The translations under genes were made by a program, and so were the position numbers. From a virus (Duplodnaviria; Caudoviricetes), in IMG/VR virus record IMGVR_UViG_3300032797_000052, positions 1 to 59,888 of that record: a stretch of DNA of 59,888 nucleotides; one strand, given 5' to 3'. How positions within the stretch are numbered: the stretch's first letter is position 1; each line of letters opens with the position of its first letter. The notes under the pieces were generated by a model. It was given only the letters and a program-made list of their open reading frames with translations. It did no database searches and had not been told where the DNA came from. Shown piece after piece: positions 7,884-59,888 of this stretch.

Positions 7884-7970
7884 AATTTATCAAATTTAAA
7901 AAAAAATGTGAAGACCCCCTTTAAGATCTTTAACTCTTAAGAGTGTTAAAGAGGTAGATTCTAGATTAAA

Positions 7971-8037
7971 CGGCTTTATATAAAGCCTTATATAAAGCCG
8001 TATATAGGAGCTTTATATAAAGACATATATAAAGCCC
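7971..8037. repeat. iteron-like array, candidate replication origin
   Basis: TATATAAAG units at 7977, 7989, 8001 (degenerate), 8014 and 8026; perfect palindrome GGCTTTATATAAAGCC at 7972-7987. Confidence 0.7.
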
Positions 8038-52503: not shown

Positions 52504-52591
52504 GGGTGCATTGAGCAATCCGGTGTGCTCGCCTGACTGTAGATCAGGTTCCCAAAAAGACATGGTGGTTCAAATCCATCTGCACCCACCA
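52504..52591 (+). tRNA. tRNA-Tyr(GUA)
   Basis: Acceptor GGGTGCA/TGCACCC, anticodon CCTGA-CTGTAGA-TCAGG, TTCAAAT loop, encoded CCA. Confidence 0.9.
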
Positions 52592-52738: not shown

Positions 52739-53455
52739 CTAGTATCCTCTCAAATTCGCCTCCTTCTTTCCCTTGACAACCTGGTACTGCCCACTCGCAA
52801 CAGCCTGGTTCACGATTGACTCCAGCTTCGCGACCTTCGAGATTACGGTATCGCGATTGTAGGAAACATCCCCTACATGTGCTGATTCCACTTTCCAGCC
52901 CGACCGTTCTAGCGTAGTGAGCGCAGCACCCTTAATGTTTCCCTCGTGTGGCATACTTTGACGCGCCTTGATTACTCCCAAGACACAGTATGCCGCGACC
53001 TCGAGGAGTGCGACTAGGGGAGGCGTGTGTACAAACAATCCGTTAATCCACGCGTCAAGCATGCCCGCTTGTCCGTTTTTGCAGAAGGCGCGGTGATTCT
53101 TTGCATCGCCTACAGCTTCATAGCATGGCCAGTAGTCCTCTAGCTTGACTACTGCCTTCTTGCCTTCGGGATTCTTGAAGGTGACTTCCCCCGTGACCCT
53201 GCTATTCGAGGCGAATTGTGCAACGGCATTTTGCACAAAGCGGTATGCTTTGACTCCTCTCCCCGTATCGCCCATACAATCCTTGGCAAGATTAGTATAG
53301 GCAAGCGTTTGCTTCTGTGACATTGCGGGGAGCGTGACTCCCTCTCCGATCACCTGGTAGTGCGTGGAGAGGGAAACATTCGCGCTTGCCAGCTTACTCT
53401 CAGCCTTGGGCGATGCTTCCTTGATTCGTTTTTGTAGCGCAACGCGTGTAGCCAT
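52739..53455 (-). CDS. hypothetical protein (GC-rich, basic)
   Basis: AAGGAG RBS before ATG 53455; own promoter and terminator. Confidence 0.75.
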   Translation of the reverse strand: MATRVALQKRIKEASPKAESKLASANVSLSTHYQVIGEGVTLPAMSQKQTLAYTNLAKDCMGDTGRGVKAYRFVQNAVAQFASNSRVTGEVTFKNPEGKKAVVKLEDYWPCYEAVGDAKNHRAFCKNGQAGMLDAWINGLFVHTPPLVALLEVAAYCVLGVIKARQSMPHEGNIKGAALTTLERSGWKVESAHVGDVSYNRDTVISKVAKLESIVNQAVASGQYQVVKGKKEANLRGY

Positions 53456-53543
53456 TACAAGACTCCTTATGAAACGCAAAACGTAGCATATAGGCGCGAG
53501 CGTATGCCCACAATAGAGAATCCTCCTTCCTGCCCGCACGCGA

Positions 53544-53674
53544 TAGACTCACTTGACCTAACCCAAGCCAGCGGAGGGAATTGCCACACGGAGGACTATA
53601 TGCGGGCTGATTCCGCCGGAGCGCCGCGTACGGATTCCACAACGCTAGCCTGGGAGGGCTGGAGGGTGAGTCTA
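53544..53674 (-). ncRNA. extended-hairpin RNA candidate
   Basis: Nested stems of 9, 12, 5 and 7 bp with G-U pairs valid on minus; downstream of TATAAT at 53698-53693. Confidence 0.55.
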
Positions 53675-53799
53675 CTGTAAAGGTACAAGAGCATTATAAC
53701 CCGGATTCTAGTATTCCAGCTTTACATAATAAAATTTAGGACTCTGTTCTATTTGTAGAACAAAACCTTAAATAATAGGGTTTCGCATAGCCAACTTCG

Positions 53800-54423
53800 G
53801 GTTTAGTACTCAGTACTCTGTACTCAAGGAGGCTATAGTAACAGGAACTTAAAACTAATTCGGAATCTGAGTAAGCGTAGAGTAAACTAAAAAAGGCGAG
53901 TACTTAGTACTCATTACTAATTTGGATAGAAAACATAACAGTTGCCCCCAAGTAATGCGGATTCTATCCAGTTGAGTACTCAGTATATAGTAATTAGTAC
54001 TCATTGTCGAGTAAACAAATCAGACTAATCTGGCCTAATTACTATATGCTACATACTCAATAGAAAGTAGAATAATAGAAAATTTATTAGTTTATTGAGT
54101 ATTTTAGGTTCTGAGGTAACGGAATTTGAATAGAAATCGGGTTTTCTGAGTACTCAATACTGATTGACTGGCGATTGAGTAAATTGTTGTCTTTTGAGTA
54201 GATAAATAGTGTGTTTGTACTGTACAAATTATATTTTTGAGGTTAAAGTGCTATTATACTGTATTGTGAGTAATACAGCCTTATAACAGCATCTAATAGG
54301 ATAATCAACAAATACTAAGATTTCTTTCAGTCAAAATCTTTAAGGTGCGATTCGGAGGGTCATGGTACAATCAAGGTGGCAGCCGCACGTCTAGACAAAG
54401 CTGAGTAATAGAAAAGGAGTACT
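53800..54423. repeat. dense GAGTA/TACTC (GAGTACTC) motif array in a non-coding block
   Basis: About 20 half-sites counted by eye. Confidence 0.75.
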
Positions 54424-54426
54424 GAA

Positions 54427-54942
54427 ATGGCTACAAATAAGAAAATCTCCTTTACACTGGAAAGTTCACCAAATAAGAATTATCGAGTAGGAAAATCTCT
54501 CCGATTTACATGGGCAGACTTGTTTTTAGCATTAGATACAGTAAAACCTCTTTGTTCGAGTAAAATCCTACGGGCGGTTATTCAATCTTTGCTGAATAGT
54601 GGCAAAGATTTTACTCATCAATATTTGTGGAAAGTAGTAGAAATGCTATACAAAGAGAAACTGTTAAAAACAAGCGATACAATGAAAGTATGCGTTTGGA
54701 TTATAGCAGCTTATGGGTACATGCACGGCTGTTCTACTGATGAATATGGTATAGGAACTTTCCCTCATCCATCGGGGCCGAGTAGAATCAAGAAAGTGAG
54801 GTTCACTGACTGGCGTGATAATCTAGTCTGTCCACTTTGTAGTAGAATCTACCATCCTAGAAAGGGCAGAGTAAATAAGGAGGTGATTGTAAAAGAATTT
54901 GGAGTATGGTTAGAAAATCATCTTACACGCGAACCACACTAG
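54427..54942 (+). CDS. hypothetical protein with C-terminal C2H2-like finger
   Basis: CPLC...HLTREPH; AAGGAG RBS. Confidence 0.65.
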   Translation: MATNKKISFTLESSPNKNYRVGKSLRFTWADLFLALDTVKPLCSSKILRAVIQSLLNSGKDFTHQYLWKVVEMLYKEKLLKTSDTMKVCVWIIAAYGYMHGCSTDEYGIGTFPHPSGPSRIKKVRFTDWRDNLVCPLCSRIYHPRKGRVNKEVIVKEFGVWLENHLTREPH

Positions 54943-54959
54943 ACAAGGAGAATAGTAAA

Positions 54960-55214
54960 ATGCCAAAGAATCCAATTACCTCAAATGGAATACTTACTCC
55001 GCCAACAGAGATTAGTTGTGTATCTGAATCACGTGACTTCTTGAAAGTAACCAAATCCTTCTATAATGGAAAGGAGCGAATAGATATTCGTTTCTGGTAC
55101 GTTGCAGCCGACGATGAAACTCTACTTCCTGGTAAAAGAGGAATCTCACTATCTCCTGAATCTGCTTTAGATGTGGCAAAGGCAATTCAGACAATCTTAG
55201 GGAGGAAAAAGTAA
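54960..55214 (+). CDS. PC4/YdbC-family ssDNA-binding protein
   Basis: V.KS.YNGK.RIDIR.WY......PGKRGISL. Confidence 0.85.
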   Translation: MPKNPITSNGILTPPTEISCVSESRDFLKVTKSFYNGKERIDIRFWYVAADDETLLPGKRGISLSPESALDVAKAIQTILGRKK

Positions 55215-56621: not shown

Positions 56622-57032
56622 ATGAAATATTATAGTAGTTGGTTTTTGATTAGATATTACCACATTAAATATCGAATCAAGAGTCGATTTGCTAGTTTTC
56701 TTTTGAAAATAGCTTCTATTCTGCATAATATAGCATATATTATAGGCAGGATAGAGAACTCTATACTAAAACTTGGTAGAAAGTTTATGGATAAATCTAG
56801 TGAAATATCAATTAATGCCTTTGATATGTCTAATAGAGAATATGATGAGTTTATTAAGAAAATGGATTTAGATGTAAATAAGCATAAAATACTAGAAGAT
56901 ACAATAGAAGACTTAGAAGATATTTTAGACATAGTAGATGCAAATAAAACATTAGATGAATTATTACATCTACCGCCTACAATAGATAAAGATGAATCTC
57001 CTTTAACAATGGGTAACTGCCGTATAACCTAA
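56622..57032 (+). CDS. hypothetical protein
   Basis: GGAGG RBS before ATG 56622. Confidence 0.6.
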   Translation: MKYYSSWFLIRYYHIKYRIKSRFASFLLKIASILHNIAYIIGRIENSILKLGRKFMDKSSEISINAFDMSNREYDEFIKKMDLDVNKHKILEDTIEDLEDILDIVDANKTLDELLHLPPTIDKDESPLTMGNCRIT

Positions 57033-57041
57033 CAAAACTAC

Positions 57042-57073
57042 AAGCAGAGAGGCCAAAAACCTCTCTGCTTTTT
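57042..57073 (+). terminator. rho-independent terminator
   Basis: AAGCAGAGAGG/CCTCTCTGCTT plus T tract. Confidence 0.85.
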
Positions 57074-57197
57074 CTATTTAATCTATCAGTACTCAGATTT
57101 GGGTACTCAGATGATGAGTAGGCCAAGAGTAGAGAAAAAACTTGAGTACCGAGCAGCAGTTTGAGTACTCAGTAATTAATACTCATTGTAGACAAAC

Positions 57198-57233
57198 AAA
57201 AAAATTAGGAGAGGAGGATTATCCTCCTCTCCT
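57198..57233 (-). terminator. rho-independent terminator
   Basis: AGGAGAGGAGGA/TCCTCCTCTCCT plus T7 on minus. Confidence 0.8.
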
Positions 57234-57262
57234 CTTGCCGTGACTAAATACAACGGCAAGTA

Positions 57263-57868
57263 TTACAATGCAACACTGACTTCTGCCTCAGTAATTTTAC
57301 TATTGCGAGCCTTGGGTTCATTTGCTTGTCGAGGATAACGCTTGAATGATTCTCTAGCAGCATTTGTCTTAATGCCACACATTGTAATCAAATCCTTAAC
57401 ATTGAATATCATCATGCCACCGCGTGCAGCATAATTAACTATTACATTATAATCAGCAGGTTCTTTACTAAATCCTAATTGTTTGAATTTTGACGCAACT
57501 TCATTCACCCAAGCAGCAAATCCTAATTGTCTAGCACCACGCGCTGTACCACTACCACCGACAATTGCATTGAAAAGGAATTCTGCTTGATTAGGATTTA
57601 ATCCATTAATGAACTGAGATTCAGCATAGATTAAAAGTGGATTACCCTTACCGGCCACTTCTACTGAAATCTCATTAATCTGACCTTTTTCAACACTTGT
57701 GGCAATAGGTAATGTACTGCCAAAAGCTTTTAGACTAGGAAGAGTCAGTAAAGTAACTTTCTTTGTATTAGAAGTAGGCTTACTAATAGGTTTCTGAGGA
57801 ACTTTACTATTAGCTATTCTATTGTGCAGTTCCTTTTTACCAGTCACTTTATTTTCCTCGTTACTCAC
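57263..57868 (-). CDS. hypothetical basic protein
   Basis: 201 aa, isolated transcription unit with terminator. Confidence 0.7.
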   Translation of the reverse strand: MSNEENKVTGKKELHNRIANSKVPQKPISKPTSNTKKVTLLTLPSLKAFGSTLPIATSVEKGQINEISVEVAGKGNPLLIYAESQFINGLNPNQAEFLFNAIVGGSGTARGARQLGFAAWVNEVASKFKQLGFSKEPADYNVIVNYAARGGMMIFNVKDLITMCGIKTNAARESFKRYPRQANEPKARNSKITEAEVSVAL

Positions 57869-58025
57869 ATACTTGCTTTAAGACTTTAACAGGAATTCTA
57901 ATCTTATCCGGGTTTCTAATAATTCTATCTTTACGCTTAGTTATCACTTTAACAGATTCATTACTAATATGGAACCTAATTCTTATATCATATGTTCGCA
58001 TTGTAGGCTCCTTGACTATGCTATT

Positions 58026-58157
58026 AAAATGAAAAATGCTACTCAGATAAGAGTAGTAGAGGGTTTAAGAGGTAACGGCGAGACCTCTCATATTATAATG
58101 GCCGTTTCGATAATGATAAAAGTCTCTACTACTCATATCCGAGTAGCATTTCATTTA
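58026..58157 (-). ncRNA. three-way-junction RNA with complementary loops
   Basis: 26-bp basal stem, two apical hairpins, loops AACGGC/GCCGTT. Confidence 0.6.
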
Positions 58158-58163
58158 TTTTAG

Positions 58164-58235
58164 TACGCCTACGAGGAATTGAACCTCGATCAATAGATTA
58201 AAAGTCTACTGCACTATCCTTTGTGCTATAGGCGC
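58164..58235 (-). tRNA. tRNA-Lys(UUU)
   Basis: GCGCCTA/TAGGCGT, GTAGA-CTTTTAA-TCTAT, CGAGG-TTCAATT-CCTCG. Confidence 0.9.
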
Positions 58236-58246
58236 ATGATTCTGAG

Positions 58247-58319
58247 TGGACTAGGGTAGACTCGAACTACCAGCCGACCGCTTATAAGACGGTTGCACGT
58301 ACCATCGTGCTGCTAGTCC
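58247..58319 (-). tRNA. tRNA-Ile(UAU)
   Basis: GGACTAG/CTAGTCC, ACCGT-CTTATAA-GCGGT, GGTAG-TTCGAGT-CTACC. Confidence 0.88.
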
Positions 58320-58324
58320 AAAGA

Positions 58325-58440
58325 TGCTGTAGTTTATTGGCTTTTATCCTACAGCGTATCCTGCCTGTAACTACTAACAGGTTGTCTTTTGGTGCCCACC
58401 TATTAGGTGCTCACCGCAGAGTAGTTTTAAGCCACAGGAT
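58325..58440 (-). ncRNA. double-pseudoknot RNA candidate between tRNAs
   Basis: Four stems plus two loop-strand complementarities (7 and 6 bp). Confidence 0.6.
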
Positions 58441-58442
58441 AG

Positions 58443-58526
58443 TCCCACCACCGAGATTTGCACTCGGACGCCATTACTGGCTGTGGATTTTAAGTCCACT
58501 ATGTCTGCTAGTTTCATCATGGTGGG
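58443..58526 (-). tRNA. tRNA-Leu(UAA)
   Basis: CCCACCA/TGGTGGG, GTGGA-CTTAAAA-TCCAC, long variable arm, CCGAG-TGCAAAT-CTCGG. Confidence 0.9.
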
Positions 58527-58617
58527 AGTAGTGGATTATACTGTATAGATGCGAATACTCAGGCGGATACTCACTGGCGAGTACTCCGAACCACTTTACA
58601 TCGTACTCTCAGTATAA

Positions 58618-58682
58618 CCCACTGTTCTGAGTATAAATGGAAGTTTCTCTTACTTCAGTACATTTATACTCAGAACAGTGGG
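58618..58682. repeat. perfect 22-bp inverted repeat
   Basis: CCCACTGTTCTGAGTATAAATG (58618-39) / CATTTATACTCAGAACAGTGGG (58661-82). Confidence 0.8.
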
Positions 58683-58713
58683 GGAGAGGGCGAACCCGAT
58701 AGACTAGACTAGT

Positions 58714-59097
58714 CTAGGATACTGTGGGAACGGGTAGAAGAATACTGATCTGTTTAACGGATTCAACATCCGTTATAACAGGCAATTCTACCACGTTCTC
58801 CACTATCTTTTCGGGCTGCATCAAAAGGGCGAGAGCCATTTGCCTCAGATCACCCTGATGCTGGTATCCGCGTAGATTTGTCTTTACTGGTACTATATTC
58901 CCATCATACGGGAGGAGGATAATCCAACGATCATCCTCAGTACCCTTCTCCCATCCAGTATTCAAGAACATGAGGGGAATATGGCGAAGTCCCTTACACA
59001 TCGCCCGAATTTCTGTACCAGATTTTCCGTATCTACTCGGACGTTGAGGCTCACCGGCTGAACCAGATGTATCAGGCTTCCCTGTTTTAGGGGTCAT
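58714..59097 (-). CDS. hypothetical protein (GC-rich)
   Basis: AAGGAG RBS; own promoter at 59163-59199. Confidence 0.65.
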   Translation of the reverse strand: MTPKTGKPDTSGSAGEPQRPSRYGKSGTEIRAMCKGLRHIPLMFLNTGWEKGTEDDRWIILLPYDGNIVPVKTNLRGYQHQGDLRQMALALLMQPEKIVENVVELPVITDVESVKQISILLPVPTVS

Positions 59098-59429
59098 GGA
59101 GTATTACTCCTTTTTGGGTACTATGTACCAGCCTGCCCATCAGGCGCGCCCTCTCCAGCCTTATTGTCCCACAGATTCCGAAAACGCACCTTAAAGATTC
59201 CGAATGAAAATAATTTTATTATTTGATGGAATTTAGGTACTCAAGTGTTGAGTAAGCGGAGAGTAAAAGAGAAATCTTGAGTAGACAAAGAGTAAAATTG
59301 AAGAATTTAGTAGTTAAAACTTTTGAGTACTCAGTAAAAAGTAAAGGAATTTGGAGTAAAAAAAATTATATTTAGTCCTAATATTCTATTATATATATTT
59401 ATTCTACCATAATTTGTTACTTTAAACAG

Positions 59430-59464
59430 AAAAAAGGGATAACCGCTTTTTTACGGTTATCCCT
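59430..59464 (-). terminator. rho-independent terminator
   Basis: AGGGATAACCG/CGGTTATCCCT plus T tract on minus. Confidence 0.75.
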
Positions 59465-59888
59465 CTCTTCTTTAGAATAGAAACTTTAGCAATTTACAAC
59501 TATTTTTAGTTCATGTTTATCCTCCTAGATATATCATTTTGTTATAAGTTAGAATTTAGAGTAATTATTATACTTATATGCTCTCCGAGGTAACGGAAAA
59601 TTTTTAGAAATCGGAAATTTTTATTACTTTATCAATATCCAAAATACTATAATAATTGTTAAACAAATTATAGTAGCCATTATAATACCTGTAATTTGTT
59701 CTCCGTTTAAAAGACACATAGGATATCCAAATTATTTGCCTACTTTCTTTACAATCATCTTTGGACGAAACTTATCAATCTCTTTCCTAATAGCATTAAA
59801 TGTATCCCAATCAATTAAATAAGCATTGTTAAGAGCATCATCAACATCAACATAATCCTCACCGCTAGGAGAATAAATAACACCACTA

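Follow-up and report, generated by a model that had tools for sequence, protein, structure and literature searches.

A Long Hairpin beside the Last tRNA Gene of a Phage tRNA Cluster: A Possible RNA Boundary Element

Introduction

Phage tRNA clusters are commonly annotated as tRNAs and "spacers". What, then, is a spacer that consists of a 132-nt inverted repeat (58026-58157) adjoining a tRNA-Lys gene? The repeat is found in the tailed-phage record IMGVR_UViG_3300032797_000052, a linear sequence of 59,888 nt with an estimated completeness of 61%, the whole of which was analysed and is called the window in what follows. An earlier note had described the element as a long helix capped by two hairpins with complementary loops, and had likened its topology to that of the pRNA of phage phi29. 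Below, the pairing, the genomic setting and the relatives of the element are considered in turn, and the functions that it may have are weighed against each other.

Results

Pairing and stability of the element

The main stem is made up of 26 positions, where 58036-58061 is opposed to 58124-58149 (i + j = 116185). When the letters are read directly, 24 of the positions are Watson-Crick pairs, and the two exceptions are those that the earlier note had given: A.C at 58045/58140, which becomes G.U in minus-strand RNA, and an A.A mismatch at 58050/58135. In the minus-strand RNA, 25 of the 26 stem positions are paired (24 Watson-Crick and one G.U), and beyond a 2-nt bulge (58034-58035) the stem is prolonged by seven outer pairs, 58027-58033 with 58150-58156; an extension had also been given in the earlier note. 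The distance to the tRNA-Lys gene (58163-58235, minus strand), put at about 6 nt, is a gap of 6 nt. The parts of the stem are the following.

58027-58033, minus strand: left strand of the outer stem extension (mean pair probability 0.75)
58036-58061, minus strand: left arm of the main stem, 3' arm in minus-strand RNA (main-stem pair probability 0.985, a minus-strand mean computed without the two non-Watson-Crick positions)
58124-58149, minus strand: right arm of the main stem, 5' arm in minus-strand RNA (inverted-repeat search)
58024-58036, minus strand: U-rich tract, U5-C-A-U4, at and after the 3' side of the stem (minus-strand RNA sequence)

The repeat search delimits the arms as 58034-58066 and 58119-58151 (33 nt, 88% complementary), and the element is the longest of the 15 inverted pairs that the whole window contains when a length of 18 nt or more and a distance of up to 200 nt are required. 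The fold energy of the minus strand is -51.1 kcal/mol (z = -8.1) and that of the plus strand -52.1 kcal/mol (z = -7.1), and in neither case is the energy equalled by any of 200 shuffles. The inverted repeat and its very stable fold into a long hairpin are confirmed as real. Over 58026-58157 the stem has no strand preference (-51.1 for minus versus -51.1 for plus), and a reading at the RNA level on the tRNA strand is reasonable. A 64-aa open reading frame on the plus strand (57969-58163) runs across the element; it has no ribosome-binding site by inspection, spans the palindrome and was judged spurious.

The apical domain

The stem is closed by a 62-nt top, in which the following features are recognized.

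58068-58088, minus strand: hairpin B, AGAGGT (58068-58073) with ACCTCT (58083-58088), 6-bp stem and 9-nt loop (pair probability 0.84)
58092-58114, minus strand: hairpin A, ATTAT (58092-58096) with ATAAT (58110-58114), five A-U pairs and 13-nt loop (pair probability 0.10)
58092-58119, minus strand: sigma-70-like match TTATCA-16-TATAAT directed toward ORF46 and overlapping hairpin A (10 of 12 positions)

The loop of hairpin B holds AACGGC (58074-58079) and that of hairpin A holds GCCGTT (58101-58106), so that the perfect, GC-rich match of 6 bp between the loops is as the earlier note had it. The two capping hairpins are likewise both in the sequence, but they differ in strength: hairpin B is well supported by its pair probability, while hairpin A is marginal.

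How often would such a layout arise by chance? Let it be defined as a pair of Watson-Crick hairpins that do not overlap, each with 5 bp or more and a loop of 4-15 nt, and whose loops are perfectly complementary over 6 nt or more. Any 6-mer complement alone occurs in 5,374 of 20,000 dinucleotide shuffles of 58062-58123, but the full kissing layout is reproduced by only 4 of the 20,000, and from this follows that the two-hairpin layout is not a chance product. Which fold it adopts is another matter. In pseudoknot-free folding, to which all the energies given here refer, the forced three-way junction with both hairpins has -50.3 kcal/mol, the fold with hairpin B alone -51.1 kcal/mol, and a nested helix of AACGGC with GCCGTT -50.7 kcal/mol (mean pair probability of the nested helix 0.12 on the minus strand), which makes the three folds near isoenergetic. 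The hexamer duplex on its own amounts to -7.6 kcal/mol. The three-way junction is therefore not secure, since the AU-only hairpin is weak and the nested rod equally stable; kissing hairpins, a loop-to-strand pseudoknot and an ordinary extended rod are all possible.

Matches of the sigma-70 type are not enriched in the region, with 12 found versus 8.4 expected (sd 3.1). The string GAGGTAACGG, which includes one half of hairpin B together with part of a hexamer, has exact copies at 54113 and 59587, both of them in spacers and both without the partner hexamer. A module of some 32 nt (GAGGTAACGGAA, 7-9 nt, TAGAAATCGG) is present twice, at 54108-54142 and at 59584-59617, and hairpin B has just the first 10 nt of it in common.

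The probable transcription unit around the element

The surroundings of the element, in the order in which they are met along the minus strand, are listed here.

59471-59428, minus strand: compact terminator before ORF127, stem-loop 59435-59464 (terminator scan)
59097-58714, minus strand: ORF127 (list of open reading frames)
58618-58682, minus strand: hairpin H1, 22 perfect pairs (inverted-repeat search and folding)
About 58530-58617, minus strand: hairpin H2, with a GAGTA-rich top (folding)
58526-58442, minus strand: tRNA-Leu(UAA) (tRNA search and Rfam)
58320-58441, minus strand: hairpin H3, which starts at the base after tRNA-Leu (folding)
58319-58246, minus strand: tRNA-Ile(UAU) (tRNA search and Rfam)
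58163-58235, minus strand: tRNA-Lys(UUU), last of the cluster (tRNA search and Rfam)
57861-58001, minus strand: ORF46, the first gene past the element, with AAGGAG at 58008-58013 (list of open reading frames)
57263-57868, minus strand: ORF201, overlapping ORF46 by 8 nt (list of open reading frames)
57233-57207, minus strand: compact terminator after ORF201 (terminator scan)

On the minus strand the order is thus terminator, ORF127, H1, H2, tRNA-Leu, H3, tRNA-Ile, tRNA-Lys, the element, ORF46, ORF201 and terminator. Because compact terminators bracket the stretch from ORF127 to ORF201 on this strand, the element is likely to be an internal feature of one transcription unit. The three nearby tRNAs are all on the minus strand, none of them has an encoded CCA, and CU follows each. 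The AAGGAG of ORF46 is located 13 nt beyond the stem.

The phage encodes a family A DNA polymerase (PolA), DnaB, a RecA-like and a gp32-like protein, and it has PHROG matches to the large terminase and the tape measure. ORF127, ORF46, ORF201 and the other neighbours, on the other hand, belong to no Pfam or PHROG family. For a structure model of ORF127 (pLDDT 71.5), Foldseek yields nothing at E <= 0.001 and the highest VIA Z is 4.0, the model of ORF201 (pLDDT 47) is too poor for use, and PDB sequence searches for neighbouring proteins are empty or weak. The assignment of ORF127 to an Arm-type DNA-binding domain was dropped, as the Atlas similarity has a TM of 0.35, below the bar. Among the neighbouring ORFs there is no match to a DNA-binding family except for a PC4-like single-stranded-DNA-binding domain (E 1.9e-11) in a 102-aa ORF at 54906-55214, which is situated among small early-type ORFs.

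Some further features of the 53-60 kb region were observed. The leaders 54325-54432 (plus strand, gene at 54427) and 59092-59210 (minus strand, ORF127) share a 15-nt block, AATCTTTAAGGTGCG; in both, a GC-rich stretch of about 70-85 nt is followed by an identical AAAAGGAGTA ribosome-binding region, and the two may be paralogous regulatory leaders. On the minus strand, promoter-like hexamers (ATTACA-17-TATAAT) at 59634-59695 precede the 59471-59428 terminator by about 200 nt without an intervening ORF, and the stretch from there to 59428 could be a small RNA gene, which would hold the complement of the GAGGTAACGG module. A GC-rich patch (52739-53700, 0.46 versus about 0.33 for the window) adjoins tRNA-Tyr (52504-52591) and contains a 266-aa minus-strand ORF that matches no family in Pfam or PHROG, together with some 160 nt of non-coding sequence that is also rich in GC; the patch may have been acquired, may be mobile, or may represent a structured RNA.

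A dyad motif shared with other spacers

Each arm of the stem contains a dyad, TACTC-N6-GAGTA, which had escaped the earlier note, as had its recurrence in the regulatory spacers of the phage.

58040-58055, no strand assigned: TACTC-N6-GAGTA dyad in the left arm (motif count)
58130-58145, no strand assigned: TACTC-N6-GAGTA dyad in the right arm (motif count)

In the window the dyad occurs four times exactly and 14 times with at most one mismatch, versus 1.66 expected, a number reached by none of 100 shuffles. The hexamer TGAGTA occurs 33 times in the 2,463 nt of four spacers (53540-54426, 57033-57262, 58002-58713 and 59098-59731) versus 41 times in the remaining 57,425 nt, an enrichment of about 19-fold, and seven further spacers have no such enrichment. 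The copies are found in both orientations, often 11 bp apart. One cluster (57090-57180), which includes a string much like the arm of the element, lies between convergent terminators; this spacer is probably untranscribed, which points to recognition of the motif in DNA. A recurring dyad-symmetric motif that is concentrated in regulatory spacers is what is expected of operator sites, and the pattern points to a putative protein that would recognize it in double-stranded DNA. Through the motif the element itself may have a role at the DNA level.

The TGAGTA/TACTCA forms comprise 10-bp palindromes (TGAGTACTCA), dyads with N6-N7 and direct repeats 7 or 11 bp apart, and the sites at 53800-54420, 57090-57180, 58040-58667 and 59238-59354 look like protein sites or iterons. 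TTGAGT was considered as a -35 element and rejected, there being no -10 at 16-18 nt by inspection. Elsewhere, at 7967-8036, a nested palindrome of GCTTTATATAAAGC units occupies a divergent spacer beside the DNA polymerase gene and could be an origin or an operator.

A syntenic relative

Direct sequence searches are largely silent on the element. Megablast of 57000-59888 against phages gives no match, distant blastn of 57850-58720 gives 32 records in which the matches listed span tRNA genes only, and an exact 21-mer of hairpin B has no match in viral contigs. Two matches to the arm pattern, one in a viral contig and one in a MAG, are single-arm with no tRNA near and were judged to be chance. 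ORF201, ORF127 and their two-sequence alignments have no relatives in viral contigs or genome contigs; in a set of 5.8 billion proteins, ORF201 has four homologues and ORF127 has five rows, two of which are the window's own protein or a fragment of it. Four relatives of the terminase come from contigs whose length, 5-23 kb, does not suffice to take in the tRNA region.

A scan of metagenomes, in which one of 128 pattern matches was confirmed, provided the sole syntenic relative found, contig L007. Its order is terminator, ORF127 homologue (34% identity), two long hairpins, tRNA-Leu(UAA), two hairpins, a small ORF, ORF201 homologue (45% identity) and terminator, where the small ORF overlaps the ORF201 homologue by 8 nt and the compact terminators (153-180 and 2303-2330) bracket the unit. 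The hairpin after tRNA-Leu begins at the next base. In the last hairpin (1407-1520; z = -5.8), arms of 29 nt carry a top of 56 nt, and U9 comes next. Its energy is -47.9 kcal/mol on the tRNA strand versus -41.5 kcal/mol on the opposite one, a difference of 6.4 kcal/mol in favour of the tRNA strand. For the L007 hairpins H1 and H2 the tRNA strand is favoured by 6.1 and 4.0 kcal/mol (-53.6 versus -47.5 and -70.8 versus -66.8), and one hairpin is a tie between the strands (-60.8 versus -60.6). Such a strand preference is a signature of RNA helices that contain G.U pairs.

The last hairpin of L007 has no sequence that can be aligned with the element, and the analogy between the two is therefore positional. 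Nor does its top have a kissing layout; there is just a 7-nt helix that prolongs the rod. Judged from this single relative, the shape and the place of the hairpin appear to be conserved and its sequence not. As side observations on L007, four long hairpins (arms 20-39 nt) are packed on one tRNA-Leu in 886-1520 with gaps of 0-1 nt, and within the 5' arm of the last one 1404-1417 form a perfect palindrome of 14 nt, reminiscent of the arms in the window, which are self-complementary too.

Variants and cassette edges in sediment populations

Six freshwater-sediment runs, none of them recorded as RNA, contain parts of the region, and contigs, all of them DNA, were compared from four of these (X1-X4). 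A contig of X4 covers 58036-58186 with four differences, among them C>T at 58140, by which the G.U of the stem becomes A-U, and C>T at 58108, which falls in loop A but not in its hexamer. From 58090 to 58158 the element is matched by a second X4 contig, which lacks one nucleotide of the linker (58119) and continues past 58158 in unlike sequence, so that the right half of the element is carried in another context. Among the best-supported differences, beyond which there are 56 more, the three of X4 are structure-neutral, and both hexamers are retained.

In X1 and X3, contigs with a near-identical tRNA-Lys switch to other sequence at 58160/58161, and in this other sequence the window's left flank does not reappear as an "empty site". 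Since tRNA-Lys in X1 and X3 continues into other sequence, the element is dispensable for the tRNA cluster, and the comparison shows it to be a separable cassette whose edge is a mosaic junction. Other contigs break at 58441/58442, 58541 and 58620, which are tRNA or hairpin edges, and one has a different tRNA in place of tRNA-Leu. At the base of H1, runs X1 and X4 have G>A at 58681, where the unaligned flank has T opposite, a possible compensatory change; for G>A at 58680 in H1 no partner change is listed.

Discussion

A proposed boundary hairpin in the operon

Consider a minus-strand transcript in which the hairpin separates the tRNA cluster from ORF46-ORF201 inside the operon. Excision of the CCA-less tRNA-Lys would free the 5' end of the hairpin. 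The long helix could halt some of the transcription at the U-tract, it could present a two-turn double-stranded target to an enzyme of the RNase III type, and its base-paired end could shield the downstream mRNA or a released RNA of about 140 nt. By doing one or more of these things (partial termination, processing of the RNase III type, protection of mRNA ends) the element would act as a boundary hairpin at the RNA level, the most likely of the explanations considered here, to which we give slightly less than an even chance. For the apical domain, with hairpin B and the GC-rich 6-nt complement, a pseudoknot, a kissing contact and an alternative helix are all conceivable.

The proposal draws on a fold (z = -8.1) that 0 of 200 shuffles equal, on the terminators (59471-59428 and 57233-57207) that flank a unit with all tRNAs on the minus strand, and on the AAGGAG of ORF46 13 nt past the stem. 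It is also favoured by L007, which in the same order has a hairpin at the same place with U9 and a preference for the tRNA strand, by the structure-neutrality of the three listed X4 differences and by phage T4, where two small RNAs, whose role is given as unknown in PMC3014915, are found directly past the last tRNA. Against it stand the equal stability on the two strands (-51.1 and -51.1), the clustering of the arm dyad in the probably untranscribed spacer 57090-57180, the short and GC-rich form of the phage's own clear terminators, which the element does not resemble, the positional analogy to a single relative with no alignable sequence, and the dispensability for the tRNA cluster that is seen in X1 and X3.

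Alternative explanations

The dyads invite an account in terms of DNA instead of RNA. The two dyads would then be operators for a DNA-binding protein of the phage or its host and would flank a junction promoter for ORF46-ORF201, and the RNA hairpin would be a by-product. The recurrence of the dyad (14 versus 1.66, 0 of 100 shuffles), the roughly 19-fold concentration of TGAGTA in four spacers and not in seven others, the two orientations with the frequent 11-bp distance, the arm-like cluster between convergent terminators and the TTATCA-16-TATAAT in the apical region all agree with this. An operator pair, however, needs no pairing between its arms outside the motif, but the arms here agree in 29 of 33 positions, in 19 of 22 outside the GAGTA/TACTC pentamers, and in seven pairs more; between the dyad centres there are 90 bp, which at about 8.6 helical turns would put them out of phase for looping; no excess of promoter-like matches is seen (12 versus 8.4, sd 3.1); no DNA-binding protein was found, with ORF127 lacking a Pfam, PHROG or fold match (best Z 4.0); and the L007 hairpins favour one strand, as RNA does. 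We regard the DNA account as rather unlikely. Should a protein bind the dyad, the region would mark out the regulon of a putative phage regulator.

The element could also be a stable non-coding RNA in its own right, some 140 nt long, which is set free from the tRNA transcript and acts in trans through a loop-loop knot, dimers or rings, pRNA-like without being pRNA. The two-hairpin layout with complementary loops, seen in 4 of 20,000 shuffles, the -7.6 kcal/mol of the hexamer duplex and the retention of both hexamers among the differences listed for the X4 variant speak for such an RNA, and the paired 5' and 3' ends together with the place right after a CCA-less tRNA would favour its release and stability; T4 RNAC and RNAD are extra small RNAs in tRNA clusters (PMC3014915; PMC9697503). 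But the pair probability of hairpin A is as low as 0.10, the hexamers can form a nested helix at equal energy, the counterpart in L007 extends its rod by just 7 nt and lacks a kissing pair, and GAGGTAACGG recurs at two spacer sites without its partner, so that the free RNA is distinctly improbable. It is more doubtful still that the tRNA operon releases a stable, self-assembling RNA of about 140 nt, with dimers, rings or a pseudoknotted head, which would have arisen, independently of phi29 pRNA, in a tailed phage that uses a terminase and could act either as scaffold or as decoy of a host factor directed at double-stranded RNA or tRNA; were this very improbable case to be true, it would be of wider interest, and its present support is a sequence pattern. 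Somewhere between these two in probability, and clearly improbable as well, is a selfish or neutral palindromic module, MITE-like or a recombination scar, which is exchanged between phages and has no dedicated function. The size of 132 nt and the 33-nt terminal inverted repeats fit such a module. Its edges would be mosaic breakpoints, because the contigs of X4 (58090-58158, then unlike sequence), X1 and X3 (tRNA-Lys joined to other sequence at 58160/58161) diverge at 58158-58161. Yet there is one copy in the record, the two single-arm pattern matches with no tRNA near were judged to be chance, no target-site duplication is seen, X1 and X3 do not have an "empty site", and a different long hairpin at the same place in L007 argues for function.

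A boundary hairpin would have implications beyond this one element. In the window and in one distant syntenic relative the spacers of the tRNA cluster are serial, very long and tightly abutting hairpins, and mosaic breakpoints that separate related phages fall on the edges of hairpins in the tRNA cluster. Should the hairpins be modules for RNA processing or termination, they would show how the phage splits one transcript into mRNAs and tRNAs and how such modules are swapped as cassettes.

Comparison with known systems

The loop complement of pRNA is about 4 nt, while that of the element is 6 nt; moreover, one of the hairpins of the element is marginal and the whole is placed after a tRNA inside an operon. 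What the two have in common in outline is a long end-to-end helix, a three-way junction, which in the element is a candidate one, and two complementary hairpin loops (PMC5066667). The pRNA-like topology seen in the earlier note is present in the sequence, but kinship to pRNA finds no backing from Rfam or from the genome. Rfam at gathering thresholds reports only tRNAs in the whole window, and cmscan of 57800-59500 at E up to 10 gives 25 matches, none of them a pRNA family; those of the element itself are to models of the microRNA-precursor type, far below threshold (e.g., 29.8 bits versus a gathering score of 85). A phi29-like host genome, small, with protein-primed replication and a packaging ATPase that depends on the RNA, was considered and rejected, in view of a contig of at least 59.9 kb with PolA, DnaB, RecA-like, gp32-like, conventional large terminase and tape-measure genes; pRNA is known only from phi29-like phages and viewed as standing in for part of a terminase (PMC5066667). 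With the topology as the one point in its favour, it is almost inconceivable that the element is a true member of the phi29 prohead or packaging RNA family; membership is rejected, and the resemblance is topological only.

Bacterial palindromic repeats of the ERIC/Correia type, which are intergenic, are about 100-150 nt, have long terminal inverted repeats and are co-transcribed with adjoining genes as long hairpins. The element, with its 132 nt and long terminal inverted repeats, is similar, but it is single-copy in the record, no target duplication is seen and no family was found. PeSLs, in turn, are short and form many repeats with common sequence. The element shares with them a small stem-loop with a promoter-like module in a variable region, with breakpoints at 58158-58161, but it repeats only the TGAGTA-type motif, has a far longer stem and holds the promoter-like hexamers within a loop. 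The PeSL cassettes of T4-like phages are composite terminator/promoter modules at points of genetic exchange (PMC4122927; PMC2839356).

Closer in position are RNAC and RNAD of T4, which were compared with the element by fold and not by alignment. They are non-tRNA RNAs of 119-139 nt directly past the last tRNA on the same strand; rnaD begins 2 nt past tRNA-Arg, and the element 6 nt past tRNA-Lys. However, rnaC has a tRNA-like T-arm, rnaD has no exceptional stability (z = -0.83), and neither has a terminal helix of 26-33 bp. The role of the two (species 1 and 2) is given as unknown in PMC3014915 and PMC9697503.

With intrinsic terminators the element shares a stable stem followed by a U-rich tract (U5-C-A-U4, and U9 in L007), and the terminator scan flagged an arm-local hairpin with its tail. 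Its stem, however, is not compact and GC-rich but an AU-rich one of 33 bp with a 62-nt top, whereas the clear terminators of the phage (59435-59464 and 57207-57233) are short and GC-rich, with stems of 11-12 bp and loops of 3-8 nt. In the early region of T7, RNase III hairpins occur between the genes of polycistronic transcripts. The element differs from these in its branched 62-nt top and its U-tract. It resembles them in having a long, near-continuous double-stranded stem of about two helical turns between cistrons; its sequence would provide the near-continuous double-stranded RNA of about 20 bp or more that an RNase III substrate requires, and cleavage would leave structured mRNA ends.
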